DNA of 64,000 nucleotides, taken from the NCBI GenBank assembly GCA_050874585.1, contig JBNMKZ010000006.1, positions 134 through 64,133 of the forward strand. The letters run 5' to 3'. A program made the translations under genes and the position numbers. The first letter of the stretch is position 1, and each line of letters begins with the position of its first letter. Below, one piece after another: positions 3,925 to 57,779 of this stretch. The notes under the pieces were generated by a model that was not told where the DNA came from, ran no database searches, and worked only from the letters and a program-made list of their open reading frames with translations. Source of the DNA: Verrucomicrobiota bacterium. Its GTDB lineage: Bacteria > Verrucomicrobiota > Kiritimatiellia > RFP12 > UBA1067.

Positions 3925-3952
3925 AAAACGAATTCCTTCTTTTCGGACTACC

Positions 3953-42239: not shown

Positions 42240-42385
42240 TCAATTCAATGAGATAATAGGCTGATAGGTCGGTTGCAGTCGCGGTATTCATTCAAAAGTG
42301 GCTCGTCCAGTTGTGCAAACGCGGGAGAGTTGGTGTAGAATATCCACAGTTGCGAAAAGGCAAGTCATTGTGTGAGGAACTAACC

Positions 42386-44074
42386 ATGCAAAAATCGCTC
42401 AAGTCGTTAGCAAAAATGTCGAGAACACGTAAGCTGGTCGCCGCGCTGCCCCTGGCGCTCGCGGCAACCGGAGCCTTTGCCGGAGTGGTGGGCACGTTGC
42501 CCGAACCGACGGTCGTGGACGGTAAGAACGTCTACACGCTGGGGACGAGCACGTCGGATGCGATTCCGACGCGTGAGAACGCCGAGGCGAACTACGACTA
42601 CATCGACTGGGCGTCGCTCAGCGTGCCCGCCGGGTCGGTCGTCAAGCTGAACGGCGCGGTCGTGCTCGATGCATTGCCCGAGGACGTCACCTACGACTGG
42701 ATCGCCTGCACGCGCATCGCCTATGTCGGCACGAGTTTCGCCACCGCCGGTAAGAAAGTGACGGTCCCCGCGACGGCGACGGCTCTCTTCTACACGAGCA
42801 CGGTGACGAAGAGCGAGGACGGAACCTCGTTCTCGCTGTCGTCCGACAAGAATTCCACGATTCAGGCGGATGTCGAAATCAATGGCGAGTTGCCGGTTCC
42901 AGGCGGCTACCAGCCCCGCTTCCAAGGATCGGTAACAGGAACGGGTGCGATGGATCTAAATGGTTTTGGCACATCGCTCGGCTTTTACGGCTCGCTATCC
43001 TTCAGCGGTTCAGTTGCCTTTGGAGCTTCGCAGGAGGCAGAAACGATTCGCATTACCTCTACTGAAGGTGTGAGTTCTCTTGGTGTTGTGAAAAGTAGTT
43101 ATCTTCCCGCCAAACCTGCTGGCTCAGGACCTAATGCTGTTTTCTTTACGCCACAAGATGAGGCTGGGGCATCGCACGAGTTGACAATTGGTGAACTTTA
43201 TCTTTGTGGTTGGACTTCTCGCGGAGGTGGTGTTGATGTCATTGGAGGCAACTCTCTCAGAACGGAGACGGGCTTTGCACGGCGTTGGGGTGTGCAACTC
43301 GTTACCTATGGGAATGATACGATTCGTGTCAAGAACATTACTGGTCAGGATATTCCGTGCCTTGGCCTCTTTGCGGATGAAAATGTGAGTTACAAGGTTG
43401 ATGCGGAGGAGCCGAAGTTTGATAAAGGCCTCGGAAACTTTATCATTGAAGGAAATCAGAGCACGGAGGCCTTCATTATTTCTCCGATGGCGAATGTGAC
43501 ATTGACGGGTTACCATGGGAATTATGCTGCGAACCGTTACTTCTTCTATACAGCTGAGTCGAGTGTTGTGAATCGTGCGCAGATTCTTGACTTTTCTGGC
43601 ATTGGGGGCTCTGGTTTTGACCTTGGGCATGAGCACTGGCGGGTGATGGGTTATAGTCCGGCAAGTCTGCCGCAGAAGATTGTCAATCACAAGGGACGTC
43701 CGGATCGCATTAACATCTATCTTTCAGACAGCGAGTGGACGATGCCGTTCGACTTCGGTGCGGAGGATGTGAATCCGGCACGGTGCGAGACGGACTGTCG
43801 GTATCTTCATGTCGCCGCCAAGGGTACGGTCTATGTGCGCAATAACACGACGGCGGCGCATGCGGCGTATCCGTCGGAGTGGACGGAATATCCCGTCATC
43901 ACGACCTACGCGGGTGGTGCGCCGACGAACGAGAAGGGCGAGTCGGTCTTCAATGACTGGACGATCGTTCCCGTCGGCAAGTGGGGTCAGGTCCAGATTG
44001 AGAAGGTCGTGAAGGATACGGGCCTCTACCTGCGCATGCGCCGGGAGAACGCCTTCCACATCATCATCCGCTGA
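42386..44074 (+). CDS. secreted surface-type protein, function unknown (compositionally mosaic gene)
   Basis: ATG 42386 follows GAGGAA. Signal peptide KLVAALPLALAATGAFAG. GSVTGTGAMDLNGFGT resembles an autotransporter-associated beta-strand repeat. The central part uses A/T-ending codons. Confidence 0.75.
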   Translation: MQKSLKSLAKMSRTRKLVAALPLALAATGAFAGVVGTLPEPTVVDGKNVYTLGTSTSDAIPTRENAEANYDYIDWASLSVPAGSVVKLNGAVVLDALPEDVTYDWIACTRIAYVGTSFATAGKKVTVPATATALFYTSTVTKSEDGTSFSLSSDKNSTIQADVEINGELPVPGGYQPRFQGSVTGTGAMDLNGFGTSLGFYGSLSFSGSVAFGASQEAETIRITSTEGVSSLGVVKSSYLPAKPAGSGPNAVFFTPQDEAGASHELTIGELYLCGWTSRGGGVDVIGGNSLRTETGFARRWGVQLVTYGNDTIRVKNITGQDIPCLGLFADENVSYKVDAEEPKFDKGLGNFIIEGNQSTEAFIISPMANVTLTGYHGNYAANRYFFYTAESSVVNRAQILDFSGIGGSGFDLGHEHWRVMGYSPASLPQKIVNHKGRPDRINIYLSDSEWTMPFDFGAEDVNPARCETDCRYLHVAAKGTVYVRNNTTAAHAAYPSEWTEYPVITTYAGGAPTNEKGESVFNDWTIVPVGKWGQVQIEKVVKDTGLYLRMRRENAFHIIIR

Positions 44075-44085
44075 CGACGATTGCG

Positions 44086-46797
44086 ATGACCGCTGTGAAG
44101 ACGAGCCGTACACTGAGCTTCTGCGTGGCGTTTGCGGCGGTCGCTTCCGCGTGGGCCGGCAACCTGCTTCCCTCCGAGCCGGGGGTGAAGGGGCAGCCGG
44201 CCCTTCACTTGGTTGATGACGACCACGGGTCGAACAACTCGAACGTGGCCTACTGGGTGAGCCGCGAGAACGTCTTCGCCCTGCGCGGCAAGGTCGTCCA
44301 CCTGCAGGGGCAGGTGAAGCAGGTTCGAACCAGCACCTGGAAGGGCATCGGCTTCACGCTCTGGGCGCGGCGGGCCTATGGGCGCAAGGGTCCGCAGGTT
44401 CGCATCGGCACGGGGACGATTGGCCCGACGCCCTGGATGGACCTGCGGCTCTCGCTTCGGCTTCCGGAGGATGCGGACGGCCTGACCGTTGCGTTCGATT
44501 GTGCGAACGGCTGGGGTCAGACGGGTGAGGCCTGGTTCAGGGATGTCATCTTGACGGCGGATGCCGCGGAATTGCCGCGTCCGAAGGGGCTGCCGCCGTC
44601 GGCCTTCGTCGAGCACGCGTTCGCGGAACTGGTGCCGACGAACGACACGCCGGCGATGGCCGCCCACCGTGCGTCCTACCGCGATCAGCCGCCGACGAAG
44701 TCCGATTCGTTTGTGCGTCCCGAGATTCGCAACGGCACCTGGTACCTGAACGGCAAGCCCGTCTTCTTCACGGGTCCGTGGATTCTGAACCGCATCGACC
44801 GGGGGAATCCGCTCAACATCACGAACGTCTGCTACACCGACTCGGGTTCGCCCGAGGCATTCGCCTACGCTGGGTTCGACTCGGCGCAGATTTCCGCCGC
44901 ACCGAATCGGTATGGTGCCCTCCTGAGGGGGCTTGAGATTGACGTCGGGCGCAAGCCCTGGGAACCCGATTTCGCCGCGCAGGAGGCCGACTTCGCGAAA
45001 TACTGCGCCGACTTCCAGGCGAAGCCGCTTGTGCTGGACTTCGCCTTCGGGTTCAATCCGGCCCTGCCGAAGGCGATTCAGCGTCGTGCGGACCAGAAGA
45101 AGATGGGGCAGGTCTGGCATGAGTTCTTTCCGCTGTGCCCTGAGTGTCCCGAGGGACGGCGGTACTACCGCGACTACTTCCTCGGCGGAACCCGGGCGGC
45201 CCTGCGCCACGGGCTGAACGTCTACATGTACGAGCTTTTCAACGAGTCGGCCTACGCCTGCGGGTGCAAGTACAACCTGCGGGAGTTTGCGCGGCGGATG
45301 AAGTCGAAGTACGGCAAGATCGCCGAGGCGAACGCGGTCTGGGGGACGGCGTTCCTCTCCTTCTGGGACGTGGCGATTCAGACGGAGCCGGAGCAGTACG
45401 ACGGCCTGCGCTACGACTGGTACGACTTCCTCTCCGACCGCTATGTTGAGATATTGAAGGATGGCATGGCGGCGATTCGCAGCGTGGACCAGCGCGGCGG
45501 CATCTTCTTCACCGAGCAGGCGGCGGGTACGCCGCCCGTGCATCGGGGCGAGGACGTCATCAAGCTCTCGGATACGCTGGATGCGCTGGCGATTGAAGGC
45601 GGCTGGCGGTATGGCGGCGGGCGAGACTACGAGGCGAAGGGCGGCACGGATGCCGTCGTCGCCCAGGATACGACGAAGCACTTCTACAACTGCGACTGGT
45701 ACGCGGCGGCGGCGCGGGGACGCGTCCCGGTCGTCAACGACGAGCACTACTGCGGACGATTTGAGGACGGCAAGCGTGTGCCGTCGAAGCGCGAGGACTA
45801 CATCACTTCCCTTTGGCTGGAACTGATGCATGGCGTGTCGGCGACCTATTTCTACAACTGGGACAAGCGTTCGTGGGACTACCGGGACCTTGAGGGGGCG
45901 CGGCGGAATGTGGAGGAGCCGAGTTACAAGAGCTACTCCTTCCTGAATCCGTTCAACTGTCCGCCCGAGAACCTGGATGCGCCGAAGCGGTTCAAGGCCG
46001 AGTTTGCGCCCTATGCGGAGAAGGTGCTGCCGTTTCCGCGTGTGAAGCCGGCGACGGTCGCCGTCTTCTATTCCCGTACGCGGGAGATTCACCGCGACGC
46101 GTTCCCGTCGTTCGACCCGACGCAGCCGAAGTGGAAGGCCGGGCATCGCACGAAGACGGCGGCGTGGTATCTTTCGGTTCTGCACGCGTTTTATCCCGTG
46201 AAGGTCGTCTTTGCGCGGGACCTGGCGACGCTCGACCCTGAGGTCAAGGTCGTCATCGTGCCCGAGGCGGAGGCCGAGAAGGTGTCGGTCGTCTCGGATC
46301 TCAAGTCGTTCGTCGACCGTGGGGGAACGGTGATTGCGGATGCGTCGGCGTTTGCCTACGACGAGTACATGAGGGCGACGGCGGCGGCCGAGGGGGCCTT
46401 CGTCCGCGTCGATTCGATTGGGGCGATGCTGTCGGAGCTCGGTCGGCTCGATGTGCCGCGCTACGCCGACTGGCAGGCGACGGACGGCAAGGGGGCGCTC
46501 GCCGGCGGCGACGTCCAGATTTGCGACCGCGGCGATTTCAAGCTCATCTGCCTTGTGGCGATGAAGGAGCGCGCCGTGCGCACGGGTCTCCTCTCGCTGA
46601 CGAACCTGTCGGGAGAAGGGCCGTGGAAGGTGACGAACGGCGTGACGGGCGAGCACCTCGGCGACTGGACGCGTACGACGCTCGCGAAGGGTGTCCCCGT
46701 GGTGCTTCCGCCGCAGGAGCGGCTCATTCTCGTTCTGGAGAAGACGACGGCGAAGACCTCCTGGTGGCGGCGGGCTTGGCGACGTGTGGAGAAGTGA
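44086..46797 (+). CDS. secreted putative glycoside hydrolase (clan GH-A-like core, GH42-like architecture; family not assignable by eye)
   Basis: Signal peptide SFCVAFAAVASAWA. Candidate catalytic motifs are YELFNES and FFTEQAAG. Paralogous to the C-terminal two-thirds of the next gene. Confidence 0.7.
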   Translation: MTAVKTSRTLSFCVAFAAVASAWAGNLLPSEPGVKGQPALHLVDDDHGSNNSNVAYWVSRENVFALRGKVVHLQGQVKQVRTSTWKGIGFTLWARRAYGRKGPQVRIGTGTIGPTPWMDLRLSLRLPEDADGLTVAFDCANGWGQTGEAWFRDVILTADAAELPRPKGLPPSAFVEHAFAELVPTNDTPAMAAHRASYRDQPPTKSDSFVRPEIRNGTWYLNGKPVFFTGPWILNRIDRGNPLNITNVCYTDSGSPEAFAYAGFDSAQISAAPNRYGALLRGLEIDVGRKPWEPDFAAQEADFAKYCADFQAKPLVLDFAFGFNPALPKAIQRRADQKKMGQVWHEFFPLCPECPEGRRYYRDYFLGGTRAALRHGLNVYMYELFNESAYACGCKYNLREFARRMKSKYGKIAEANAVWGTAFLSFWDVAIQTEPEQYDGLRYDWYDFLSDRYVEILKDGMAAIRSVDQRGGIFFTEQAAGTPPVHRGEDVIKLSDTLDALAIEGGWRYGGGRDYEAKGGTDAVVAQDTTKHFYNCDWYAAAARGRVPVVNDEHYCGRFEDGKRVPSKREDYITSLWLELMHGVSATYFYNWDKRSWDYRDLEGARRNVEEPSYKSYSFLNPFNCPPENLDAPKRFKAEFAPYAEKVLPFPRVKPATVAVFYSRTREIHRDAFPSFDPTQPKWKAGHRTKTAAWYLSVLHAFYPVKVVFARDLATLDPEVKVVIVPEAEAEKVSVVSDLKSFVDRGGTVIADASAFAYDEYMRATAAAEGAFVRVDSIGAMLSELGRLDVPRYADWQATDGKGALAGGDVQICDRGDFKLICLVAMKERAVRTGLLSLTNLSGEGPWKVTNGVTGEHLGDWTRTTLAKGVPVVLPPQERLILVLEKTTAKTSWWRRAWRRVEK

Positions 46798-46821
46798 AGG
46801 TAGTTGAATCGAAGTAGAAGG

Positions 46822-49800
46822 ATGACGATGAGAGCAGCACAGTGTGGTTTGGCGGTGACGCTTGGTTTGGCTGGGTTCCTTTCGGTTTCGGCGGAGGTCT
46901 CGTTTCCGTCCCGCCTGACGGCGGCGGATGCCGGGCGGCAGTTCGTGGGCGCGGCCGACGGTTCGACGCGGTGGGCGGCCGACGAACCGCGGCAGCTCGA
47001 AATTGAAGGTGCGGATGGCGTCCGCTTTGAGAACATCGCCTTCTCCAATGTGTCGGTCGTGGTCGTTTCGGCGAAGGGTGTTGTCTTTCAGAACTGCCGG
47101 CTGACGGGGAATTCGGACTGGGCGATTTGGTTCCAGGACGGGGCGCAGTCGAACGTGGTGCGGTATTGCGAGATTGCTGGACCGGGCGGCATCCGTCTGG
47201 GCGGGGGCGCGTCGGCGGGGCCTTCCGCCGCGTGCGCGGCCAATGAGATTGTCGACACGACGATCGTTCAGCGGGGGCGGCCGGGCGGTGCGGGCGTCTG
47301 GATGGGCGGCTCGTCTGCGGGCAACCGGCTCGTCCACAATGACATCTCGGGGGCATTTGGCGTGGGGATTAGCGTCGATGCATCCTCGCGGAACCGCCTG
47401 GAGGGAAATCTCGTCCACGAGCTCGGCTCGAAGGGCCGCGAGGCGACGGGCATTGGGCTGTCGGGTGCGGATAATACCGTCTGGGGCAATACGGTCTTCG
47501 CGATTCCGGGCGGACGGGATAGCGGGGTTGGACTCTTTCTCGTGGAGCCGGCGGGCGAGACGGTCGTCGCCTCCAATCTCGTCTATGGGACGGATGGCGC
47601 GGCCTACCGTCAGGCGGGGGGCGCGGGCGTTCGTCTTGAGAACAACATCCTGTCGCGCAAGTTTGCCGCGCCGCTTGACGTTTCGGAGGGCGGCGCGTTG
47701 ACGGCAACGCACAACATCTTCTACTGGGGCGAGGGTGACTTTTTCGCCCGTATGCCGTCGGGCGCGGCGAAATTCACGGCCAACCAGTTCTGCTGCCGCG
47801 AGGGGGATGGCACGGTGCGCTTCAGGGGGCTGACATTGGCCGACTGGCAGCGTGCGGGCGGCGATGCGGGTGCGATTGAGTGCGATGCGCTCCTGACCGA
47901 TCCCGATGCGGGCAACTACCGCGTGCGCCCGGATGCGCGTGCGATGCGCATCGGCTTCAGGCGGTTCGACCCGTTTGCCGCCGGCGTGCGGACGGACTAT
48001 TCGAACTACCGCTATCCCCAGCAGCCGCTCACGCCCCACGAGCAGGCCTATAAGAAGAGCTACGAGGATCAGCCGCCCGTGACGGACGACGGGAACCTTG
48101 AGAAGCGGCCCGAAATCCGAAATGGCACCTGGTATGTGAACGGCAAGCCCGAGTACTATCTCGGGGTGTGGCTCTACAACCGCGTCCGCGAGTGGGGCAA
48201 GGGGTCGAATCCGCTCAAGATTGACCACATCGCCTATACCGAGCGGCCCGGGACGAACAACTTTCCGCAACTGGGCTTCAACTCGTCCCAGCTCTCGTGT
48301 GCACACGCCGACATCGGGCGCATCCTGCATGGGGCGCGTCCGCGCCGCGACGTGGACGAGTTCGAGCGCGAGATGCTTGAGTTCTACCGGGGCTTCGGCG
48401 ACATGCCGTTCGTCGTGGACTTTGCCTTCGGCTACGACAACATCTACCCGAAACCCGTGCGCATCGCGCTCGACCAGCGTCGGTTCGACTGGCACAACTT
48501 CATTCCGCTCTGTCCCGAGGACCCCGAGGGCGACGCGTACTACCGCGACTTCTTCCTCGGCGGCACGAAGGGGGCACTCCGTGCGGGCGCGAACGTCTTC
48601 CTCTGGGAACTCTTCAACGAGTCGGCCTACAACTGCGAGTGCGTCTACAACCGCCGCGACTTCGTGGCGCGGATGCTGAAGCGCCACGGTTCGCTCGCGG
48701 CACTCAACGCCCACTGGGGGACGGCGTATACGACGACGGACGAGATTGTGGCCGTCGATTCCTTCATGTCGAATCCGGCCGCCTGGTACGACTGGTGCGT
48801 CTTTTCGGCGGCGCGGTACAACGAGATTCTCGCGAAGTACCGGGCCGTCATCGAGTCGACCGACAAGCGGGAGCGCGTCTACTTTACGGAGCAGGCGGCG
48901 GGACATCCGCCCGTGCACCGTGGCATGGACTTGCGCGGGGCCGATGCGCTCGACGCGCTCGCCCTTGAGGGCGGCTGGCAGTTCGGCGGCAATACGGACT
49001 ACCAGGCGAAGAGCGCGATGGAGGCCGTCGTCGCCTCGCGTGGCTCGCGGCACTTCTACAACTGTGACTTCTACCAGGCGCTGGCCAAGGGCAAGAAGGT
49101 CATCGTCAACGACGAGCACTACTGTATGCGCCTTGAGAACGGCAAGCGCGTGCCGTCCAAGCGTTCGGACTACATCACGGCCCTTTGGCTTGAGGTGATG
49201 CACGGGGTCTCGGCGAACTTCACCTACGTCTGGGACAAGCGCGCCTGGGAATACAAGGATGCCGCCGGGGCGTTGAAGAATGTGGAGAAGCCGAGCTACA
49301 AGTCCTCGTCGCTGCTGAATCCGTACAACGTGAAGCCCGAGGATCTCGCCGCATTCAAGGAATTCCAGGATGAGCTTGCGCCCTACAAGGAGAAGGTGTT
49401 GCCGTTTCCGCGTGTGAAGCCGGCGACCGTCGCCGTCCTGCTCTCGAAGCCGACGCAGATTCAGCGCGACCGGCTCGCCCCCGTCGATCCGACGCGCCCG
49501 CTCTGGCAAAGCCAGCCCGACCGCGCCGGTGTCTGGTACGTCTCCTTCCTCCATGCGCTTTATCCGGTCAAGGTCGTCTTCGAGGAAGATCTTGACGCAC
49601 TTGAGACGGCGGCGGTCATCCTGCCCGATTCGCAGTACGTCCTGCCGGAAGTCGTCGGGAAACTCCGTGCCTATGCGGCGCGTGGTGGACTCGTCATCGC
49701 GGCGGACGACTCGCTCGCCTTCGATGCGTGGGGCAAGCCGCTGCGTGCCGACATTCCGATGCGGCGCGTGAAGGGCGTTGACGAGGCGTTGGGTGTGCTG

Positions 49801-50142
49801 GCGGAGAAGAATGTCCGTCGCTATGCCGCGATTGAGCCGACGGATGGGAACGACGAGCCGATTGCCGCCGCCGATGTGCAGATTTGCGATCGCGGCGACT
49901 TCAAGCTGGTCTGTCTCGCCGACATGGGCGGGCGGCGGACGCGGCAAATCCGCCTCCGGCTCTTCATCGATGAGTCGGCGGATGCGTCCTACCGCGTGTA
50001 CAATCCGGTTCTCAAGCGGGAACTGGGCGTTTGCACGGTTGCGGAACTGGCGCGGGGAATTCAGCTGGAGCTCCCGCCGCAGGAGCGTGTGCTCGTTGAA
50101 TTGACGAAGGCGGAAACGGAAGAAACCAAGGAGACGAAATGA
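46822..50142 (+). CDS. secreted protein: N-terminal right-handed beta-helix (PbH1 repeats) + GH-like domain paralogous to 44086..46797
   Basis: Beta-helix repeats (NRLVHNDISGAFGVGISV, NRLEGNLVHE, NTVWGNTVF). Then YEDQPPV..RPEIRNGTWYVNGKP, WELFNES, YFTEQAAG and NDEHYCMRLENGKRVPSKRSDYITALWLEVMHGVS. Start is one of TTG 46804, ATG 46822 or ATG 46828. Confidence 0.75.
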   Translation: MTMRAAQCGLAVTLGLAGFLSVSAEVSFPSRLTAADAGRQFVGAADGSTRWAADEPRQLEIEGADGVRFENIAFSNVSVVVVSAKGVVFQNCRLTGNSDWAIWFQDGAQSNVVRYCEIAGPGGIRLGGGASAGPSAACAANEIVDTTIVQRGRPGGAGVWMGGSSAGNRLVHNDISGAFGVGISVDASSRNRLEGNLVHELGSKGREATGIGLSGADNTVWGNTVFAIPGGRDSGVGLFLVEPAGETVVASNLVYGTDGAAYRQAGGAGVRLENNILSRKFAAPLDVSEGGALTATHNIFYWGEGDFFARMPSGAAKFTANQFCCREGDGTVRFRGLTLADWQRAGGDAGAIECDALLTDPDAGNYRVRPDARAMRIGFRRFDPFAAGVRTDYSNYRYPQQPLTPHEQAYKKSYEDQPPVTDDGNLEKRPEIRNGTWYVNGKPEYYLGVWLYNRVREWGKGSNPLKIDHIAYTERPGTNNFPQLGFNSSQLSCAHADIGRILHGARPRRDVDEFEREMLEFYRGFGDMPFVVDFAFGYDNIYPKPVRIALDQRRFDWHNFIPLCPEDPEGDAYYRDFFLGGTKGALRAGANVFLWELFNESAYNCECVYNRRDFVARMLKRHGSLAALNAHWGTAYTTTDEIVAVDSFMSNPAAWYDWCVFSAARYNEILAKYRAVIESTDKRERVYFTEQAAGHPPVHRGMDLRGADALDALALEGGWQFGGNTDYQAKSAMEAVVASRGSRHFYNCDFYQALAKGKKVIVNDEHYCMRLENGKRVPSKRSDYITALWLEVMHGVSANFTYVWDKRAWEYKDAAGALKNVEKPSYKSSSLLNPYNVKPEDLAAFKEFQDELAPYKEKVLPFPRVKPATVAVLLSKPTQIQRDRLAPVDPTRPLWQSQPDRAGVWYVSFLHALYPVKVVFEEDLDALETAAVILPDSQYVLPEVVGKLRAYAARGGLVIAADDSLAFDAWGKPLRADIPMRRVKGVDEALGVLAEKNVRRYAAIEPTDGNDEPIAAADVQICDRGDFKLVCLADMGGRRTRQIRLRLFIDESADASYRVYNPVLKRELGVCTVAELARGIQLELPPQERVLVELTKAETEETKETK

Positions 50143-53100
50143 AGGGACTGATGATTGGAGCCGTCGTGGGGGTGGCCTTTTCGGCGATTGCGGGGACGAC
50201 GCTTGAGCCGGGCGTTCAGGTGGATGGCCGTTGGCTCGATGCGGCCGCAGCAAAGGCGCGGGGCCTCGTCCTGACGGAGCAGGTTCTGCCCGAGGGCCGC
50301 CGCGTGACGCTTGAGAATCGGAGCGGCGCGACGGTTCGCCCCGAGGAACTCGGCTGGCGGAAAGTCGGGCGGGACGATTTCGACGTGAAGGGCCTGAAGG
50401 TCTATCTCGAAGGCTGGCAGATGGCGAGCCCCTGCGGTGTGCGCAACTGGGATGACGAGCCGTTCGACTATTCGCCCGGCTACCTTCACAACTGCGTCTC
50501 GACTCCAAGCGATTTTCATCCGGGCGAGCGGGGACGCTTCCTCGCCGACTACATGTGCTGCTTCCGTCGTCCCGACGGGCGGATGCGGCTGTATGGGTTT
50601 ACGACGGGCAAGGATCGCTTCGGGCACTTTCGGATGCAACTGGATGCGGAGGGGGTTCGGGAACTCTTCGCCCTCAGCGCCTGCGACCGCGCCGAACTGA
50701 CGCCGGGCGCGGTGATTCAGTCCGAGACGCTTGTCGAGATGGAGGACGATGCGACCGAACGGCTGTTCGCGGCGTTTGCCGACCGCTGGGCGGACGCGTC
50801 GGGTCGGCGGGCGAAGGTCGAGACGCCGATTGGCTGGTGCAGCTGGTACTACTACTTCAGCAAGGTGACGCTCGCGGACGTCATCGAGAACATGGACTGG
50901 CTGGTCGCCCATCGGGCGAAAGGCTTTGAACGCGTCAAGGTCATCCAGCTCGACGACGGCTACCAGACGGCCCTCGGGGATTGGCTGAGCGCAAACGAGA
51001 AGTTCCCCGGCGGCCTGCGGCGGTATGCCGAGGAGGTGAAGGCGCGGGGCTTCGTGCCCGCCGTCTGGGTTGGGCCGTTCATGGTCGAGGAGAACGCGGT
51101 TCTCGCGAAGGAGCACCCGGATTGGCTGGTGAAGGGGGCGGATGGGCGGCCCGCCTCACCGCTCGGGTGGCGCGGCAATCACAGGGTCTATGTGCTCGAC
51201 GGGACGAATCCGGCGGCACAGGAGCACCTGCGTACGCTCTTCAGGACCTTGCGCGGTTATGGCATCGAGTACGTGAAGCTCGACTTCTGCATGATTGCCT
51301 CATCGGTGAAGGATGCCGTCTACCACGACCGCACGGCGACGCGGGCGCAGGCCCTGCGCCGGGGGTTCGAGGCGATTCGCGAGGGCTTTGGCGACGACGG
51401 GTTCATCATGGGGTGCACGGTGCCGTTCGGTCCGCTCGTCGGGCTGGCGGACGCGATGCGCACCTCGACGGACATCACCCCCTACTGGCAGGGGAAGAAC
51501 CACCAGTATGCGGAAGCCCCGAACGTGCCGAACGTCTGCCGGAACATCATCAATCACGCCTACATGAACAACCGCGTGTGGATCAACGATCCCGACACGC
51601 TGATTGTGCGCGACGATGCGACCGAGCTGACGAAGAACGAGGTTGAGCTGTGGGCCGAGGCGGTCGCCGTTGTCGGCGGGTCGCTTCTGCTGTCGGATCG
51701 GTTCTCGACCCTGTCGCCGGAGCGGATGCCGCTCGTGACGCGTGCACTGGCGGATGCGGGGCGCTACCAGAATCCCTATCCGGCCGATCGCTGGGAGCGG
51801 ACGTATCCGACCGTCTGGAAAGCGCTGAAGGATGGCCGCCTGCAGACGGCGACGTTCGACTTCACGAACAGCCATTCCGTCTCGGTGTCGAGCGCGAAGG
51901 GCACCTGGGTCGAGGAGGCCGGCATCCGCAAGTTCAAGGTCGGTCGGTCGCCGGTGGAGGCGAAGGCCGAGTCGGCGGCGGCGTATGAACGCACGCCGCA
52001 GGCGCTTGAGATTCGCGTGGACGAGTCGATGACGCTGGATGACGTCAACGCGATGGAAGTTCCGCCGGGGGCCAAGGTCCTGTTCAAGCGCGGCGGCGTG
52101 TGGCGTGGGCAGCTCCAGCCCCGGAGCGGCAAGCCGGGGCATCCGGTGACCTACGGTGCCTATGGGGATGGGCCGAAGCCGGTGATTGAGCCGAGTTACG
52201 ACCGCAGTCGGGCCGAGGACTGGACGGACGAGGGCGATGGCATCTGGTCGACGCGGACGGGCGCGGCGGCCGACATCGGGAACGTCATCCTCGATCATGG
52301 TGCGGCTGGGTGCGCCTTCAAGCGCGGCGCGCGGGCCGAACTGACGCGGGACCTCGACTTCTGGTGCGACCCGACGACATTCGTCGTCCACTTCAAGTCG
52401 CAGGCGAATCCGGCGACGCGCTGGAAATCGGTTGAACTTGCGGAGAAGGTCCATTGCATCGACGAGGCCGAGATGCATGACATCGCCTATGAGGGGCTGT
52501 GCCTGCGCTATTCCGCCGCGCACGGCATCGGCGGCGACGGCGTGAAGCGCATCATCGTGCGCGATTGCGACATTTCGTGGATTGGCGGCGGCTACCTCTA
52601 CTACGACAAGCTCGGCAACGGCGTTCGCTATGGCAATGGCATCGAGTTCTGGAGTGCGGCAGAGGATGTGCTCGTCGAGTCGAACCGCATTTGGCAAGTC
52701 TGGGATGCCGGGCTGACCAACCAGTCCAATGCCGACGGTGTCACCCAGCGGAACATCACCTATCGCGGCAACGAGGTCTGGGACTGTGAGTATTCCTACG
52801 AGTACTGGCAGCAGGGCGAGGGGTCGCGAACCGAGAACGTTCTCGTCGAGGGCAATGTCTTCCGCAATGCCGGTTCGGGATGGGGGCATCGCCAGCGGTG
52901 GAATCCGAACGCCGCCCACCTGATGTTCTACGATACGACGGCGCAGACGACGAACTTCGTCGTGCGCGGCAACGTGTTCTCGCGCTCGGCCGACACGCTC
53001 TTTCGCCTGTTCAACGACTGGCGGGCGAGCCTGACGATGGACGGCAACCGCTGGGAAGCCAAGGACGAGTCGGTCTGCCGTTTCCATGGCCGCCCGACGG

Positions 53101-53240
53101 AAGGTCTCATTTACCGCTATCCCGATCGGCTTGACCAGATTCACAAGGACGATGCATCTGAAATCGAGTCCCAGGGGACGGGTGCGCGCATCTTCACGTT
53201 CGACCAACTGAAAGAGTTCAAGGAGTTCATCCATGAATAA
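50139..53240 (+). CDS. alpha-galactosidase (GH36-like) fused to a C-terminal right-handed beta-helix domain
   Basis: Contains GWCSWYYYF, IQLDDGYQ, GIEYVKLDFC (nucleophile region) and WINDPDTL (acid/base region). The C-terminal ~400 aa carry parallel beta-helix repeats. ATGA overlap with the previous gene, and AAGGAG RBS. Confidence 0.82.
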   Translation: MKGLMIGAVVGVAFSAIAGTTLEPGVQVDGRWLDAAAAKARGLVLTEQVLPEGRRVTLENRSGATVRPEELGWRKVGRDDFDVKGLKVYLEGWQMASPCGVRNWDDEPFDYSPGYLHNCVSTPSDFHPGERGRFLADYMCCFRRPDGRMRLYGFTTGKDRFGHFRMQLDAEGVRELFALSACDRAELTPGAVIQSETLVEMEDDATERLFAAFADRWADASGRRAKVETPIGWCSWYYYFSKVTLADVIENMDWLVAHRAKGFERVKVIQLDDGYQTALGDWLSANEKFPGGLRRYAEEVKARGFVPAVWVGPFMVEENAVLAKEHPDWLVKGADGRPASPLGWRGNHRVYVLDGTNPAAQEHLRTLFRTLRGYGIEYVKLDFCMIASSVKDAVYHDRTATRAQALRRGFEAIREGFGDDGFIMGCTVPFGPLVGLADAMRTSTDITPYWQGKNHQYAEAPNVPNVCRNIINHAYMNNRVWINDPDTLIVRDDATELTKNEVELWAEAVAVVGGSLLLSDRFSTLSPERMPLVTRALADAGRYQNPYPADRWERTYPTVWKALKDGRLQTATFDFTNSHSVSVSSAKGTWVEEAGIRKFKVGRSPVEAKAESAAAYERTPQALEIRVDESMTLDDVNAMEVPPGAKVLFKRGGVWRGQLQPRSGKPGHPVTYGAYGDGPKPVIEPSYDRSRAEDWTDEGDGIWSTRTGAAADIGNVILDHGAAGCAFKRGARAELTRDLDFWCDPTTFVVHFKSQANPATRWKSVELAEKVHCIDEAEMHDIAYEGLCLRYSAAHGIGGDGVKRIIVRDCDISWIGGGYLYYDKLGNGVRYGNGIEFWSAAEDVLVESNRIWQVWDAGLTNQSNADGVTQRNITYRGNEVWDCEYSYEYWQQGEGSRTENVLVEGNVFRNAGSGWGHRQRWNPNAAHLMFYDTTAQTTNFVVRGNVFSRSADTLFRLFNDWRASLTMDGNRWEAKDESVCRFHGRPTEGLIYRYPDRLDQIHKDDASEIESQGTGARIFTFDQLKEFKEFIHE

Positions 53241-54585
53241 GTTTCTGCTGTACGTCTCGGTTGTCGCCTCGATTGGTGGCTTTCTCTTCGGTTTTGACTC
53301 GGGCGTCATCTCGGGCGCGGAAGGGGCCATTCAGAACGAGTTCGCGCTCAGTTCCTTTTGGCACGGTCTCATCATTTCGGGTGCGCTCATTGGTACGATT
53401 ATCGGTGTCTTCACGGCCGGACGACCGAGCGACCGCTGGGGACGTCGCCCCGTGCTGTGGGCGATGGCCATTCTCTTTCTCATTTCGGCGGTTGGGTGTG
53501 CCCTCACGCCGATGGATGCGAAACTCGGACCGCACCTGCTGGGCTGGTTCCGTTTCATCGGTGGGCTTGCCATCGGCGGCGTGAGCGTGGTCGTGCCGCT
53601 CTACATCGTCGAAATCGCGCCCGGCAATCGCCGCGGGTTGCTCGTCGGACTGAACCAGTTCAACGTCGTCTTCGGCATTCTGGCGAGCTACATTACGAAC
53701 TATCTCGTCGCCAAGTACATGCCGCAGGTCGACCCGCGGATTGTTTGGCGTGTGATGCTGGGCGTCGAGTGCCTGCCCATCGTGGCGTTTATGGCACTGT
53801 TGGTGACGATTCCCGAATCGCCGCGTTGGCTCGTTCGTGCGGGACGGATGGACGAGGCGCGGGACATCCTGCGGCGGACGGGCGTTGCGGATGCGGAGGC
53901 AACGGTTGGCGAGATTCGTTTGACCCTGGCGGCGGCGGCTGGCGGCCGGGACGTGCCGCTTTTCCAGCGCAAGTACCTGAAGCCGATTCTGCTTGCGTTC
54001 TTCATCGCCTTTTTCAACCAGACGAGCGGCATCAACGCCATCAACTACTATGCGCCGCGCATCTTCGGGATGATTTTTGGTGAGAACTCGTCCCTCGTTT
54101 CCCTCATTGGCACGATGGGCATGGGAACCGTCAACCTGATCTTCACCGCACTCGCCTTTGCCGTGATTGACCGTGTCGGACGGCGTGTGCTGATTCTGAC
54201 GGGTTCGGCGGCCATGATCCTGATGCACGGGCTTGTCGCCTGGCAGCTGTCGCTCGCCCAGCCCAATGCGGCGATTGCCGTCTGCGGTATTTTCGGTTTC
54301 ATGGCGTTCTTTGCGCTTTCATCGGGTGCCTGCCTCTGGGTTTACATTTCCGAGGTGTTCCCGAATGCCGTCCGAGCGAAGGGTCAGGCGTTCGGGTGCT
54401 TCATCCACTGGTTCCTCTGCACGGTAATCAGCTGGGCCTTCCCCTGGGCGGCCGAGCGGGCCGGGTCGGCGACATTTGGCTTCTTTGCCCTGATGATGGT
54501 CTGCCAGCTCGTCTGGGCGATCTTCTTCATGCCCGAGACGAAGGGCGGCACAACCGAGGATATTGAAAAGAGATTGGGATTCTGA
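53233..54585 (+). CDS. MFS sugar porter family transporter
   Basis: Contains GGFLFGFDSGVISGA, GRRPVL, PESPRWL and PETKG, with 12 predicted hydrophobic segments. Confidence 0.92.
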   Translation: MNKFLLYVSVVASIGGFLFGFDSGVISGAEGAIQNEFALSSFWHGLIISGALIGTIIGVFTAGRPSDRWGRRPVLWAMAILFLISAVGCALTPMDAKLGPHLLGWFRFIGGLAIGGVSVVVPLYIVEIAPGNRRGLLVGLNQFNVVFGILASYITNYLVAKYMPQVDPRIVWRVMLGVECLPIVAFMALLVTIPESPRWLVRAGRMDEARDILRRTGVADAEATVGEIRLTLAAAAGGRDVPLFQRKYLKPILLAFFIAFFNQTSGINAINYYAPRIFGMIFGENSSLVSLIGTMGMGTVNLIFTALAFAVIDRVGRRVLILTGSAAMILMHGLVAWQLSLAQPNAAIAVCGIFGFMAFFALSSGACLWVYISEVFPNAVRAKGQAFGCFIHWFLCTVISWAFPWAAERAGSATFGFFALMMVCQLVWAIFFMPETKGGTTEDIEKRLGF

Positions 54586-54588
54586 GAG

Positions 54589-56637
54589 ATGTCACCACGA
54601 ATTAAGAGTTTGCTGGATCGCACGTTTGAAAAGGAACAGCGCGCATTTCGCCGCGATGTGGACTGGAAGCCGCTTCTTGACCGCTTTGTGGCGGAAGGAG
54701 TGGACGACGAGACACGCGCACGAGTCGGCCTTGAGGAAATGCTGAAGGCCGAGAAGCCGGCCTTTATGGAAGGGGAAAGAATCCACTTCCTGCGGACCGT
54801 CAAGCAGATACCCGACCTTCACACGGTGGCTGAGATGGAGGCCCGGAAGGCCGCCGGCACGGCTTTTGGCGAGAAGGGGGTTGTCTTCAACCTGACGGCG
54901 GATTTCGCGCCGACCATTCGCGACGGTCTCGACTGCCGCCTGGCGGAGATTGAGGCGCGTCTCGTCCGTGCGCACGCGGAGAATGATGCGGAGGGGATTT
55001 CCTTCCTCACGAACGCGGCACTTTCGGTCAAGGCCGTGCTGGATCTCGTCGACCGCTACCGGGCGGCTCTTCCGACGGGGTCGGTCGATTGGCTGATGGC
55101 CGTCCATCGGGGCGCGAAGACGTTCCCCGAGGCCCTTCAGGTGCTGCGCGTTCTCCACTATGCCCTGTGGTGCGAGGGCGAATACCATTGTGGACTCGGT
55201 CGGTTGGACCAGTACCTGTTTCCGTATTATGCGGACGACATCGCCAACGGTCGGCTGACGGTCGAGGAGGCCCTCGAATATATTGAGGAGTTCTTCATCG
55301 CCTGCAATCGCGACAGCGACCTCTACATTGGCGTTCAGCAGGGCGACAACGGGCAGTCCATTATGTTGGGCGGTGTGACGCGTGCGGGTGCGGAAGCCTT
55401 CAACGACCTGTCGCGCCTTTTCCTGCGGGCGTGCGGCGAACTCAAGCTGGTTGATCCGAAAATCAACCTGCGCGTCAGCAAGACGACACCGCTCGAAATC
55501 TATGAGGAGGGGACGAAGCTGACGAAGGAAGGTCTCGGCTTCCCCCAGTACGCGAACGATGACGTGGTCATTCCCGCACTCGTCCGGTGGGGGTACGAGC
55601 TGGAGGATGCGCGGGACTATTCGGTTGCCGCGTGCTGGGAGTTCCTGATTCCCGGTTGTGGACTCGACATCGACAACATTGACGCGGTCTCGTTCGTCGG
55701 CAGCCTCGATGCGGCCCTGCGTACGCCCTGTGCGACATACGAGGAGGTTGAGAAGGCCTTCTTCGCCGAAATCCAGCGTCGGGCGGATGCCCTGGTCGAG
55801 AAGTATCGCCATGTGGAGATTCTGCCGGGGCCGTTCGTCTCGGTCATTTCGACCGGTTGCATCGACCGCGCCCGCGACATTTGCCAGGGTGCGAAGTACA
55901 ACAACTTCGGTATTCACGGCACGGGTATCGCCGTGGCCGTCGATTCGCTCGCCTCCGTTCGTGAGCTCGTCTTTGAGCGCAAGCTGGTGACGCTGGCCGA
56001 ACTCGTCCGCCTGATGGATACCGACTTTGCCGGTCGGCCCGACGTACTCGCGGCGGCAAAGGCCGCGCCGAAGATGGGAAATGCCGATTCGCGTGTGGAT
56101 GACATTGCCAAACGCCTGCTGGCCTTCTGGGGACATGCCTTTGACGGCAAGCGCAACGATCGCGGCGGCATCTTCCGTCCGGGTACGGGGAGTGCGATGT
56201 ACTACATTTGGCATGCGCGTGAAGTCCCGGCGAGTGCCGACGGACGGCTCAGGGGTGAGCCGCTTTCGGCGAACTATGCGCCGTCGCTGGACGCGTCGGT
56301 CAAGGGGCCGATTAGCGTCATCCGCAGTTTTACGGAGCCGGACCTCATGCCCGTCTGCAACGGCGGTCCGCTGACCATTGAGATTCACGACTCGGCGTTT
56401 GCCTTCCCGGACGGTGTCGAGAAAGTGGCGCATCTCGTGAAGTTCTTCGTGGATCGCGGGGGACACCAGATGCAGATCAACACGATCAACCGGGAGACCC
56501 TGCTTGATGCGCAGGCGCATCCCGAACGCCATCGTCACCTGATTGTGCGCGTTTGGGGATGGTCGGGGTACTTCGTGGAACTCGACAAGTGCTTCCAGGA
56601 CCAGATCATCAAGCGCGTGGAACTCGCCGCCTCATGA
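54589..56637 (+). CDS. glycyl radical enzyme, PFL2/dehydratase-like, short form (682 aa)
   Basis: C-terminal glycyl radical motif LIVRVWGWSGYFVEL (Gly at 56557-56559). Cys loop is VAACWEF (Cys 55633-55635, Glu two residues later). Also GRLDQYLFPYY and FPQYANDD. Confidence 0.88.
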   Translation: MSPRIKSLLDRTFEKEQRAFRRDVDWKPLLDRFVAEGVDDETRARVGLEEMLKAEKPAFMEGERIHFLRTVKQIPDLHTVAEMEARKAAGTAFGEKGVVFNLTADFAPTIRDGLDCRLAEIEARLVRAHAENDAEGISFLTNAALSVKAVLDLVDRYRAALPTGSVDWLMAVHRGAKTFPEALQVLRVLHYALWCEGEYHCGLGRLDQYLFPYYADDIANGRLTVEEALEYIEEFFIACNRDSDLYIGVQQGDNGQSIMLGGVTRAGAEAFNDLSRLFLRACGELKLVDPKINLRVSKTTPLEIYEEGTKLTKEGLGFPQYANDDVVIPALVRWGYELEDARDYSVAACWEFLIPGCGLDIDNIDAVSFVGSLDAALRTPCATYEEVEKAFFAEIQRRADALVEKYRHVEILPGPFVSVISTGCIDRARDICQGAKYNNFGIHGTGIAVAVDSLASVRELVFERKLVTLAELVRLMDTDFAGRPDVLAAAKAAPKMGNADSRVDDIAKRLLAFWGHAFDGKRNDRGGIFRPGTGSAMYYIWHAREVPASADGRLRGEPLSANYAPSLDASVKGPISVIRSFTEPDLMPVCNGGPLTIEIHDSAFAFPDGVEKVAHLVKFFVDRGGHQMQINTINRETLLDAQAHPERHRHLIVRVWGWSGYFVELDKCFQDQIIKRVELAAS

Positions 56638-57398
56638 CGGGACGGGTCTTCGAGATTCGCGAATTTACCCTCCAGGACGGGCCGGGCATCCGCACGACCG
56701 TCTTTTTCAAGGGCTGTCCGCTGAAGTGCGCCTGGTGCCACAATCCGGAAGGGCAGTCCCACGAGATCGAGTTCATGACGCGTCCCTCGGGGGAAAAGGT
56801 CCGGTGCGGGGCGGATTGGACGGCGGAAGCCCTGGCCACCGAACTCCTGCGGAATGCGGACATCATGTCCGCCTCGGGCGGCGGCATCACCTTTTCGGGT
56901 GGCGAACCCCTGATGCAGGCCGAATTTCTCCTTTCGCTCATTGACGCGATTCGGTCGCGCCCGGAGTCGAAGGGCGTTGGGCTTGCAATTGAGACGAGCG
57001 GCTACTGCCCTCAGTCGACCTACGCGGCGGTTGTTTCGCGGCTCGATTTCGTCTATCAGGACCTGAAGCATCATTCAGTGGCGGACTTTCGGAAATGGAC
57101 GGGTGGCGACCTTGGGGTCGTTTTGGAGAACATCGCCTGGCTGAAGGCGAGTGGCATCGCCTACCGCATTCGCGTACCGCTGATCCCGGGGGTAAACGAT
57201 GCTCCGGCCGACCGTGCCGCCTTGGAGAATCTGATTGGCGATTCACCCGTCGAGTGGCTGCCCTATAACGCGGCGGCTGGTGCCAAGTACCCCCTCTTGG
57301 GGCGGACCTATCCTCTCGCGGCGGAATTCCGATGCCCGTCGGATGGAATTCTGATGCCCGTCGGAAAAATTTCTGATGGGCATCAGAAAACGCTCTGA
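56634..57398 (+). CDS. glycyl-radical enzyme activating protein (radical SAM)
   Basis: GPGIRTTVFFKGCPLKCAWCHNPE (CX3CX2C) and GGITFSGGEPL. In-frame ATG 56634 overlaps the GRE stop (ATGA). The last ~24 codons lie in the 22-bp repeat array. Confidence 0.9.
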   Translation: MTGRVFEIREFTLQDGPGIRTTVFFKGCPLKCAWCHNPEGQSHEIEFMTRPSGEKVRCGADWTAEALATELLRNADIMSASGGGITFSGGEPLMQAEFLLSLIDAIRSRPESKGVGLAIETSGYCPQSTYAAVVSRLDFVYQDLKHHSVADFRKWTGGDLGVVLENIAWLKASGIAYRIRVPLIPGVNDAPADRAALENLIGDSPVEWLPYNAAAGAKYPLLGRTYPLAAEFRCPSDGILMPVGKISDGHQKTL

Positions 57399-57458
57399 TG
57401 GGCATCAGAAAGGACGCCAATGCCCATTAGACGGGGCGGAGTTCCCCACGGGCAGGTT
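57327..57458. repeat. 22-bp phased palindromic array (homologous to 13535-13622)
   Basis: Cores TGCCCG 57333, TGCCCG 57355, TGGGCA 57377, TGGGCA 57399, TGCCCA 57421 and degenerate TCCCCA 57443. Arms include TTCCGA/TCGGA and TTCTGA/TCAGAA. Confidence 0.85.
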
Positions 57459-57482
57459 GGATGCCTCTCGCGCGCATATTTT

Positions 57483-57491
57483 TGGTATAAT
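57483..57491 (+). promoter_or_regulatory. extended -10 promoter TGGTATAAT (leaderless configuration)
   Basis: Sequence ATTTTTGGTATAAT, with TATAAT at 57486-57491. There are 7 nt between the box and ATG 57499. Confidence 0.6.
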
Positions 57492-57498
57492 ACGGCCC

Positions 57499-57777
57499 AT
57501 GAAACGAAGTGAATTGGAGGAGGAGATTCGGCAGGTCATTCTGTCTTCCGTAGAGGTTGACGGACTGACTGCGGCGGATCTGGCGGCCGATCAACCGCTC
57601 TTTGGGGACGGGATCGGCTTGGATAGCATTGATGCACTGGAAATCGGCGCCGCGCTCCGTAAGAAGTATCAGGTCAAGTTTAAGGCGAATTCCAGCGAGA
57701 ATCGCGTCCATTTCCGGACGATTGCCTCGTTGGCGGACTTTATCGCCGCGAATGCCGGGATTACCATTGAGGACTGA
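57499..57777 (+). CDS. acyl carrier protein (first of tandem pair)
   Basis: 92 aa, with GLDSIDALE (phosphopantetheine Ser). In-frame ATG 57499 chosen over 57376, which runs through the repeat array and the promoter. Confidence 0.85.
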   Translation: MKRSELEEEIRQVILSSVEVDGLTAADLAADQPLFGDGIGLDSIDALEIGAALRKKYQVKFKANSSENRVHFRTIASLADFIAANAGITIED

Positions 57778-57779
57778 AA

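Follow-up and report, generated by a model that had tools for sequence, protein, structure and literature searches.

A short glycyl radical enzyme with a tryptophan-flanked radical site in a sugar-porter operon of a Verrucomicrobiota bacterium

The sugar-porter cassette and its operon

The stretch analysed here (the window) comprises 64,000 nucleotides of a Verrucomicrobiota bacterium (assembly GCA_050874585.1, contig JBNMKZ010000006.1, positions 134 to 64,133 of the forward strand) and contains the gene for a short glycyl radical enzyme (GRE) of the PFL2 type, followed by the gene for its activase. The enzyme and activase form an intact PFL2-type system whose predicted catalytic apparatus is under strong purifying selection, and the enzyme belongs to a structurally trimmed, motif-divergent group of GREs whose substrate class is probably new. 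The operon and the catalytic positions of the enzyme are listed below (aa, amino acids; GH, glycoside hydrolase family; MFS, major facilitator superfamily; SAM, S-adenosylmethionine).

42311..44074, + strand: protein of 587 aa of unknown type, without a Pfam or PDB match; possibly the first gene of the operon, ending 12 nt before the next gene
44086..46797, + strand: GH42/GH167-like protein of 903 aa, same operon
46804..50142, + strand: protein of 1112 aa with a beta-helix and a GH42/GH167-like TIM barrel, same operon
50139..53240, + strand: secreted GH36 (TmGalA-type) alpha-galactosidase with a beta-helix domain, overlapping the start of the MFS gene; a variable accessory
53233..54585, + strand: sugar-porter-family MFS symporter (XylE/GlcP-like), Pfam Sugar_tr E 1e-99
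54589..56637, + strand: short PFL2-type GRE of 682 aa, ATG start
54889..54891, + strand: Asn101 of the GRE, at the position of the canonical His of PFL2-type GREs (MAFFT, HHalign and translation)
55627..55641, + strand: Cys loop AACWE of the GRE, comprising the catalytic Cys349, then Trp350 where Val or Ile is usual, and Glu351 as the acidic residue of C-x-E
56548..56574, + strand: Gly loop RVWGWSGYF of the GRE, with the radical-bearing Gly657 between Trp656 and Trp658
56634..57398, + strand: radical SAM GRE activase of 254 aa with a CPLKCAWC motif (CX3CX2C), scoring 199.5 with TIGR02494 against a cutoff of 174

The seven genes (42311-57398) are co-directional and tightly spaced or overlapping. 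The porter assignment was supported by TIGR00879 (308 against a cutoff of 238) and by matches to XylE structures at 4e-66. A preliminary description of the window had placed the GRE directly behind an MFS sugar porter and coupled it through ATGA to its activase; both statements were confirmed, the activase ATG at 56634 lying inside the GRE stop codon, and only the quoted intergenic distance of 4 nt required correction, as the porter gene ends at 54585 and leaves a gap of 3 nt before the GRE start codon at 54589. The alpha-galactosidase and GH-like genes that it had noted upstream are the GH36 enzyme with its beta-helix and the two GH42/GH167-like proteins, and its report that microcompartment and aldehyde dehydrogenase genes are missing was correct for the 64-kb window. 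The further statement that the GRE is embedded in a glycan-utilisation operon applies to the window, but not to the lineage as a whole, in which the glycosidases are variable accessories. Relatives that are 81-87% identical retain the MFS, GRE and activase genes, with glycosidases in some of them (loci L001, L006) and AzlCD instead in L004, and a GH36 gene is found upstream in approximately 11 close relatives from the Planctomycetes-Verrucomicrobia-Chlamydiae (PVC) group and is absent from L004 and L013-L015. Since close relatives keep the three genes while the glycosidases vary, the conserved unit of the window lineage is the cassette MFS-GRE-activase (53233-57398).

The activase gene adjoins the GRE gene in 70 of the 82 loci in which neighbouring genes were clustered. 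In alignment A3, the window activase and its Kiritimatiellae orthologues (L001, L004) have a gap of about 38 columns replacing the 8-Cys ferredoxin-like auxiliary insert that is present in orthologous activases from other phyla (L024, L034, L047, L059, L076, L079). The window activase does not contain the TIGR02494-type insert for auxiliary [4Fe-4S] clusters and, judging from this alignment, has been reduced in this lineage to a minimal activase resembling PflA.

The window is a chromosomal segment, with housekeeping genes, of a Kiritimatiellae-like gut bacterium, and its LptFG-LpxA-Mur ligase region is syntenic with that of a Kiritimatiellae metagenome-assembled genome (MAG). A scan for promoters and terminators between 41 and 58.5 kb performed no better than on shuffled sequences, and the 64 kb contained no match at the gathering score to any Rfam family, tRNA included. 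Long antisense open reading frames (ORFs) of up to 2160 aa, for example at 44026-50508 (-) and 54592-56538 (-), overlie the real plus-strand genes and are a high-GC artefact that is misleading for length-based gene calling. Directly past the activase, at 57376-63249, are genes for two acyl carrier proteins, a fusion of an AMP-binding domain with an ApeI-type dehydratase, a LolA-like protein and a 977-aa protein without a Pfam match, which resemble genes for aryl-polyene-type lipid biosynthesis and export. A link between the GRE and this cluster was considered and rejected.

Catalytic residues, trimmed architecture and clade

Two Pfam domains were identified in the 682-aa protein: PFL-like (PF02901, residues 173-535, E 2e-83) and Gly_radical (PF01228, residues 563-663, E 9e-17). 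Equivalences of the catalytic residues were determined with three independent alignments (phmmer against the PDB, MAFFT with E. coli PflD and YbiW, and HHalign), in all of which C349, E351 and G657 coincide with the catalytic residues (Cys, Glu and Gly) of glycerol dehydratase (GD; C433/E435), PflD and YbiW; in the phmmer alignment, VAACWEFLIPG is paired with IIGCVEPQKPG of GD and RVWGWSGYF with RVAGYSAQF. The protein therefore has the features of the GRE superfamily, namely the PFL-like domain with its ten-stranded barrel, the C-terminal glycyl radical domain, the Gly in an R-V-x-G-[YFW]-S motif and the Cys-loop Cys, together with the C-x-E arrangement of eliminases and isomerases, E351 being aligned to E435 of GD and E443 of YbiW. 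According to a GRE review of June 2026, which uses the YbiW numbering given here (C441/E443), C-x-E is kept by all 1,2-eliminases (C-O, C-N and C-S) and isomerases, and the Glu hydrogen-bonds a substrate hydroxyl. The preliminary description had read a PFL2/dehydratase-type GRE, a Trp on either side of the radical Gly and an AACWE Cys loop with C-x-E from the ORF; the domain matches and the alignments agree with all of this, and its Cys, Glu and Gly assignments, which it had set beforehand as the point on which it could fail, were upheld by each of the three methods.

The same 2026 review records the proposal that His164 of GD protonates the leaving hydroxyl. At this position, in the loop after strand beta-1, all 15 canonical sequences in the comparison have a His (H156 in PflD, H165 in YbiW), and the window GRE has Asn101, which is invariant in alignment A1 (25 members, 34-84% identity) and throughout the short superclade described below; the His is a typical feature of eliminases and isomerases rather than a formally defining one. 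By alignment, Tyr339, Tyr640, Asp447 and Ser282 of GD correspond to Gly255, Gly534, Asn363 and His200, respectively, the Val/Ile between Cys and Glu in G-C-V-E corresponds to Trp350, and the small residue ahead of the radical Gly corresponds to Trp656. The roles of GD residues other than Cys433, Glu435 and His164 are those which we take them to have in the GD structure. Polar residues that are invariant and specific to the clade are D242, Y246, D253, N254, K291, N293, Q320, H443, R530, T596 and E598. The net picture, drawn from these alignments, is of a pocket that would be larger than that of GD and have an amide and polar lining and an aromatic platform, as expected for a monosaccharide, with the Cys-Glu ketyl pair kept.

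The window GRE is 83-128 residues shorter than PflD, GD and YbiW (about 105 shorter than GD and 1,2-propanediol dehydratase, PD). Ahead of the Cys loop, 70-92 residues are lost (C349 compared with C419 of PflD, C433 of GD and C441 of YbiW), mainly as one block between residues ~74 and 99 and another near 161 (MAFFT, HHalign). The preliminary description had called the Cys349-Gly657 spacing normal and had assigned all of the shortening to the N-terminal side; its figure of 308 residues and the N-terminal loss are correct, but the spacing is 322 in PflD, 330 in GD and 345 in YbiW, and the 14-37 missing residues were lost mainly just after the Cys loop. The deleted N-terminal block sits among the helices ahead of the barrel, which are described in the 2026 review as the canonical dimer interface, so that an effect of the deletion on oligomerisation is possible.

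No curated NCBIfam family claims the window GRE. Scores and cutoffs were 278/1100 for HypD, 262/1109 for E. coli PRK09983, 242/1000 for HpfG, 241/1000 for HpsG, 237/1050 for CutC (TIGR04394) and 54/994 for pyruvate formate-lyase (PFL, TIGR01255); equivalogs, including those for the indoleacetate and 4-hydroxyphenylacetate decarboxylases, were missed by a factor of at least 3 (3-4), and the broad PFL2 subfamily model TIGR01774 gave 295 bits against a cutoff of 678. The best phmmer matches in the PDB were GD (4e-74) and PD (2e-69), with PflD also among the best, and these matches span residues 173-680 only. A single-sequence AlphaFold2 (AF2) prediction gave a pLDDT of 37; structural comparison was performed with an AF2 model based on alignment A1 (pLDDT 92, pTM 0.92), which has the GRE fold (TM-score 0.85-0.90 to solved GREs). 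Foldseek placed this model about equally close to CutC, GD, PflD, PD and HypD (TM 0.88-0.90; 22-25% identity) and singled out no nearest characterised GRE. Because of this equal superposition, the window GRE is predicted to be a PFL2-type barrel equidistant from all characterised eliminases and isomerases. Its identity to any solved or characterised GRE is approximately 25-28% (25% or less to solved ones by structure).

Relatives were collected by an exhaustive search over 1.8 billion cluster representatives. It yielded dozens of 50%-identity clusters that match the window GRE over its full length (34-53% identical, 640-710 aa), and RVWGWSG[YFH]F together with AACWE is present in every end-to-end relative whose C-terminus is intact. 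Within alignment A1, C349-W350-E351, R654, W656-G657-W658-S659, N101, G255, R530 and T596 are invariant. The clade signature consists of C-W-E, W-G-W, Asn for His, Gly255/Gly534, both deletions and a length of 640-710 aa; the window GRE has all of these features, and among the 25 aligned members they vary little or not at all. In a neighbour-joining tree, the AACWE/W-G-W clade was monophyletic and separate from PflD and YbiW; moving outward, it is followed by a sister clade with RVWGFSAYF and SACWE, which is also short and of the Asn101 type, then by [GS]GCWE proteins of ~745 aa, by DGCWE proteins of 765-782 aa that retain the His and, outermost, by canonical GCVE/A-G-Y enzymes including PflD and YbiW. 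The separate monophyletic clade, the missed NCBIfam cutoffs and the low structural identity place the window GRE outside the characterised clades, on which the preliminary description had also staked its claim. Full-text literature searches retrieved no paper on the window clade or its sister clade, and the 2026 review, which covers the characterised GREs (about two dozen functions), refers to entire clades without a validated assignment.

A confirmed relative was found in at least 596 genomes in a scan of one genome per GTDB species. The carriers belong to the Kiritimatiellae, Lentisphaerae, Verrucomicrobia, Planctomycetes (Thermoguttaceae), Bacteroidales, Prolixibacteraceae, Clostridia, Lachnospiraceae and Spirochaetes, originate mostly from human, ruminant and other gut samples, and include two cultured strains, Acetatifactor aquisgranensis DSM 110981 and Enterocloster hominis CLA-SR-H021. 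The closest matches in named genomes (L007, CAVDWI010000067.1; L008, CAVAHB010000021.1) are 87-88% identical and have the same GH36-MFS-GRE-activase order; they are labelled Barnesiella intestinihominis and Faecalibacterium sp. CAG:74, lie on 8-10 kb contigs in 'cleanbin' MAGs and look like mis-binned Kiritimatiellae DNA. Six proteins within or beside the W-G-W clade (P0151, P0156, P0176, P0177, P0181, P0182) retain neither the Cys nor the Gly motif, and no adjacent activase was present in the two such loci inspected (L099, L100); these are probably non-radical, repurposed or decaying paralogues.

Genomic contexts and proposed function

Neighbouring genes were surveyed by clustering the ORFs within 7 kb of the GRE (82 loci) and by BLAST with seed proteins (84 loci), together with Pfam and NCBIfam scans; greedy ORF calling was unreliable in high-GC PVC loci because of the long antisense ORFs, and the clustering and seed BLAST were used instead. 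The loci span the PVC group, Planctomycetota, Bacteroidota, Bacillota and Spirochaetota. An orthologous sugar-porter MFS gene lies beside the GRE in ~30 of the 84 loci, CUT2 (ribose-type) ABC systems are present in ~8, CUT1 ABC permeases in ~7 and LacI regulators in 9. Glycosidases are represented by GH36/GH27/Raffinose_syn-type alpha-galactosidases (~15 loci), GH51 alpha-L-arabinofuranosidases (at least 9) and GH127 (5), and an aldose 1-epimerase (mutarotase) is encoded in 6 loci.

Several arrangements combine these genes. The order mutarotase-activase-GRE-MFS-GH51(-GH127) is found in Bacteroidales and Opitutales (L055, L058, L060, L071, L073), GH36-mutarotase-GH27-GH51-MFS-activase-GRE on a Prolixibacteraceae chromosome (L047), and an entire operon consisting of a substrate-binding protein, two permeases, GH51, LacI, activase and GRE in Acetatifactor and Eisenbergiella (L076, L070). 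In three loci from three phyla (L049, L059, L079), genes for a SftI-like aldose-ketose isomerase, a XylB-like FGGY kinase and a divergent class II ketose-bisphosphate aldolase, none at equivalog cutoff, encode possible downstream enzymes. Locus L072 has a split transketolase, a Zn-dependent alcohol dehydrogenase and the only aldehyde dehydrogenase among the loci, and microcompartment shell genes were not seen in any locus with annotated neighbours. The sugar-derived substrate suggested in the preliminary description is strengthened by the recurrence of sugar transporters, glycosidases and mutarotase in several phyla. Its candidate diols derived from fucose or rhamnose are not favoured, as the contexts point to arabinose/galactose-type sugars and no fucose or rhamnose genes were seen.

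By analogy with characterised GREs, and with a probability of roughly 0.55, we propose that the window enzyme is a radical C-O lyase, working as a dehydratase or as a ring-opening isomerase, whose substrate is a galacto-configured sugar (of the D-galactose/L-arabinose type) imported in free form. Secreted glycosidases would release a neutral monosaccharide and the MFS porter would import it. The activase, using S-adenosylmethionine and its [4Fe-4S] cluster, would install the radical on Gly657, from which it would pass to Cys349; the thiyl radical would take a hydrogen from the sugar at one of its carbinol carbons while Glu351 deprotonates the hydroxyl of that carbinol, and the resulting ketyl radical would expel the oxygen substituent of the neighbouring carbon. 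If the leaving group is a hydroxyl, the net reaction would be dehydration to a deoxy-keto sugar or (2-)deoxy-lactone; if it is the ring oxygen, ring-opening isomerisation as in PflD and YbiW would result. The product radical would then regain a hydrogen from Cys349. The regiochemistries considered are C1-H abstraction leading to a 2-deoxy-lactone, ring opening through a C2 ketyl to a ketose, deoxygenation through a C3/C4 ketyl, and dehydration of the exocyclic diol of a furanose. Substrate, regiochemistry and product of the window GRE are what we infer from this scheme and its contexts.

An unphosphorylated substrate is suggested because free sugar is what symporters and ABC systems bring into the cell. 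The most likely candidate is a galacto-configured aldose, since D-galactose and L-arabinose share the C1-C4 configuration and are products of the associated glycosidases; D-galactose would be the substrate in the window operon and L-arabinose that in many of the relatives. The recurrent mutarotase neighbours imply that the first cytoplasmic enzyme uses a reducing sugar in an anomer-specific manner, and use of one anomer is therefore probable.

Several points weigh against this proposal. Galactose and arabinose have cheap non-radical routes, and the unexplained need for a GRE argues for a modified sugar. The general-acid His is missing, and because of its absence a simple GD-like dehydratase mechanism is not guaranteed. 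The pocket equivalences were mapped by alignment and not from coordinates. Glycosidase neighbours occur in a minority of loci only, several copies in PVC and Planctomycete genomes lie isolated between housekeeping genes, and the isomerase, kinase and aldolase set, seen in no more than 3-4 loci, could be part of another pathway encoded alongside. Finally, a deep-branching protein with the same AACWE/W-G-W motifs (P0145, 37% identical, locus L098) lies with its activase in a biosynthetic-type cluster, next to genes for a B12-binding radical SAM enzyme, AMP-binding ligases, carrier proteins (PP-binding), a family 2 glycosyltransferase (GT2) and a short-chain dehydrogenase; given this context, the catabolic role is probably restricted to the subclade at 46% identity or more.

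The strongest alternative, a serious one although we consider it less likely, is that the same radical C-O cleavage acts on a carbohydrate which is modified or non-reducing and resists opening by ordinary enzymes, such as 3,6-anhydrogalactose, a 1,5-anhydro-alditol, an O-methyl or sulfated galactose, or a cyclitol (myo-inositol from galactinol-type alpha-galactosides). A GRE is easier to rationalise for a recalcitrant ether bond, and the loss of the general-acid His matters less with a better leaving group. GH127 and GH167 include red-algal galactan enzymes, and two large proteins encoded upstream in the window resemble GH167; sugar-porter MFS proteins carry inositols too, and in L049 a sulfatase and two enolase-superfamily genes adjoin the GRE. 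PflD and YbiW, which are the only GREs known to act on sugars, open the ether bond of an anhydro-sugar (2026 review). On the other side, the hosts are overwhelmingly herbivore- or human-gut and rumen anaerobes, the commonest glycosidase partners are ordinary GH51 and GH36 enzymes, the 6 loci with an aldose 1-epimerase imply a reducing sugar whose anomeric centre is free, and Firmicute operons with GH51 as the sole glycosidase beside the GRE point to arabinose itself.

It is improbable that the enzyme is orthologous, though divergent in sequence, to the anhydro-alditol-6-phosphate isomerases PflD and YbiW and has a sugar phosphate as its substrate. It shares C-x-E with them, has a TM-score of 0.88 to PflD and counts PflD among its best PDB sequence matches, and a HAD phosphatase gene follows the GRE in L057 and L069, with a ROK kinase gene near it in L064. 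The identity is only 27-28%, however, and the clade is separate in the neighbour-joining tree; the conserved His of these isomerases is Asn here, the symporters and ABC transporters supply unphosphorylated sugar, and no phosphotransferase system (PTS) or fructose-6-phosphate aldolase is encoded nearby, unlike in the E. coli loci. A small-diol dehydratase, for glycerol or 1,2-propanediol (e.g. from fucose or rhamnose), or another known eliminase type is very unlikely: GD is the best PDB sequence match, C-x-E is present and L072 has aldehyde and alcohol dehydrogenases upstream, but the equivalog scores are 3-4 times under the cutoffs, His164, Tyr339, Asp447 and Tyr640 of the GD pocket are all replaced, and neither shell nor CoA-acylating aldehyde dehydrogenase genes are present in the window or close relatives, so that this candidate was rejected on pocket residues and context.

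There is likewise only a slim chance that the GRE has a biosynthetic role and modifies a sugar or acyl intermediate for the adjacent acyl carrier protein/AMP-ligase/ApeI lipid cluster or for a surface glycan. The two acyl carrier proteins, the AMP-binding-ApeI fusion and the LolA-like gene just downstream, the company of P0145 and the capsule-type loci of the sister clade are in keeping with such a role; in relatives 81-84% identical (L001, L004), however, the MFS-GRE-activase core is kept and the downstream cluster is not beside the GRE, and the catabolic neighbours recur across phyla. The name 'pyruvate formate-lyase', under which close relatives are publicly annotated, and with it a pyruvate or 2-ketobutyrate formate-lyase activity, is effectively refuted by the TIGR01255 score, by the match of PFL structures at 1e-11 compared with 1e-74 for eliminases, and by a loop that reads A-A-C-W-E where PFL has an adjacent Cys-Cys pair.

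GREs drive several gut-microbial reactions of medical or biotechnological interest and few of their functions are assigned. The present clade is large, is common in human, ruminant and other animal guts and is linked to plant and host glycan breakdown. If the substrate is a free sugar of the arabinose/galactose type, the clade would add a new radical step to anaerobic carbohydrate metabolism and extend the sugar-active GREs from the rare anhydro-sugar phosphates of PflD and YbiW to mainstream dietary sugars. With its Trp-Gly-Trp loop, replaced His and shortened N-terminus, the clade offers natural experiments on the stabilisation, activation and use of a glycyl radical. Because the two cultured strains carry clade members, function is directly testable.

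Elsewhere in the window, two fusion genes encode chorismate synthase with 3-dehydroquinate synthase (30997-32856) and shikimate kinase with 5-enolpyruvylshikimate-3-phosphate synthase and the N-domain of shikimate dehydrogenase (32860-34962); this is an AROM-like arrangement of the shikimate pathway that is unusual for bacteria. A gene at 17661-18629 encodes 6-pyruvoyl-tetrahydropterin synthase (PTPS) fused to a YhcH/YjgK/YiaL (DUF386) domain. At 2863-3924 lies a gene for a protein that combines a phage tail-collar domain with a Gp10 C-terminal-like one, at 3953-12343 one for a giant 2796-aa protein whose sole Pfam match is the lectin domain Laminin_G_3, and at 12343-13203 one for a TSP3-repeat protein; the genes of 2863-13203 may form a surface adhesin or tail-fibre-derived system.

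Comparison with known systems

The sister S-A-C-W-E/R-V-W-G-F-S clade shares with the window GRE both deletions, Asn for His, C-W-E and the Trp before the radical Gly, and differs in having Phe and not Trp after it, with 29-33% identity to the window GRE. In four of five sampled members, its genes lie with an activase gene inside surface-polysaccharide biosynthesis loci of capsule or O-antigen type (L089/L090 for P0192, L091/L092 for P0158, L093/L094 for P0204 and L095 for P0154). The neighbours there are Wzx flippase, GT2 and GT4 glycosyltransferases and nucleoside-diphosphate-sugar epimerases and dehydratases, not sugar transporters or glycosidases, and the P0192 and P0158 loci (L089, L091/L092) also contain a gene of the UDP-galactopyranose mutase (GLF) Pfam family. 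This suggests that the sister clade performs a radical sugar-modifying step in glycan biosynthesis, and because of this location the whole C-W-E superclade looks carbohydrate-dedicated. We offer only tentatively the broader view that the window clade is a founding member of a 'carbohydrate-active GRE' superclade, carrying out anomer-specific, cofactor-free, redox-neutral radical C-O cleavage directly on a common plant monosaccharide, L-arabinose or D-galactose, in unphosphorylated form, with a sister branch that makes deoxy or keto sugars for capsules. Were it true, it would represent a previously unknown anaerobic entry route for pentoses and hexoses, widespread in gut and rumen bacteria, and a minimal GRE/activase pair with a trimmed N-terminal region, a Trp-flanked radical and an activase without auxiliary clusters.

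Among characterised enzymes, the choline trimethylamine-lyase CutC was the top Foldseek match (TM 0.89, E 1e-42) and shares C-x-E, but is 23% identical, is excluded by its TIGR04394 score and differs in its choline and microcompartment context. The B12-independent GD and PD align exactly at Cys, Glu and Gly and may share the general logic of radical dehydration; they differ in being ~25% identical, in having His164, Tyr339, Asp447 and Tyr640 where the window GRE has Asn, Gly, Asn and Gly, in not having Trp within C-x-E, and in their aldehyde-processing or microcompartment partners, which are represented in the surveyed loci only by the two dehydrogenases of L072.

PflD and YbiW, the C-O lyases of 1,5-anhydromannitol-6-phosphate and 1,5-anhydroglucitol-6-phosphate ('GRE isomerases'), resemble the window GRE in the PFL2 fold (TM 0.85-0.88), the C-x-E loop, the lack of a microcompartment and a small residue at one of the two GD-Tyr pocket positions; by analogy, a carbohydrate substrate and probably ketyl-driven C-O cleavage would also be shared. 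Unlike the window GRE, they retain the His, the G-C-V/I-E loop and the A-G-Y Gly loop, are 765-810 aa long, take sugar phosphates delivered by the PTS and feed fructose-6-phosphate aldolase (FsaA/B), whereas the window porter is a symporter for free sugar. Neither by clustering nor by a PTS and aldolase context does the window GRE belong with them. By these analogies, the enzyme would work most like PflD and YbiW in carbohydrate C-O cleavage and like GD and PD in dehydration; it is a member of neither group.

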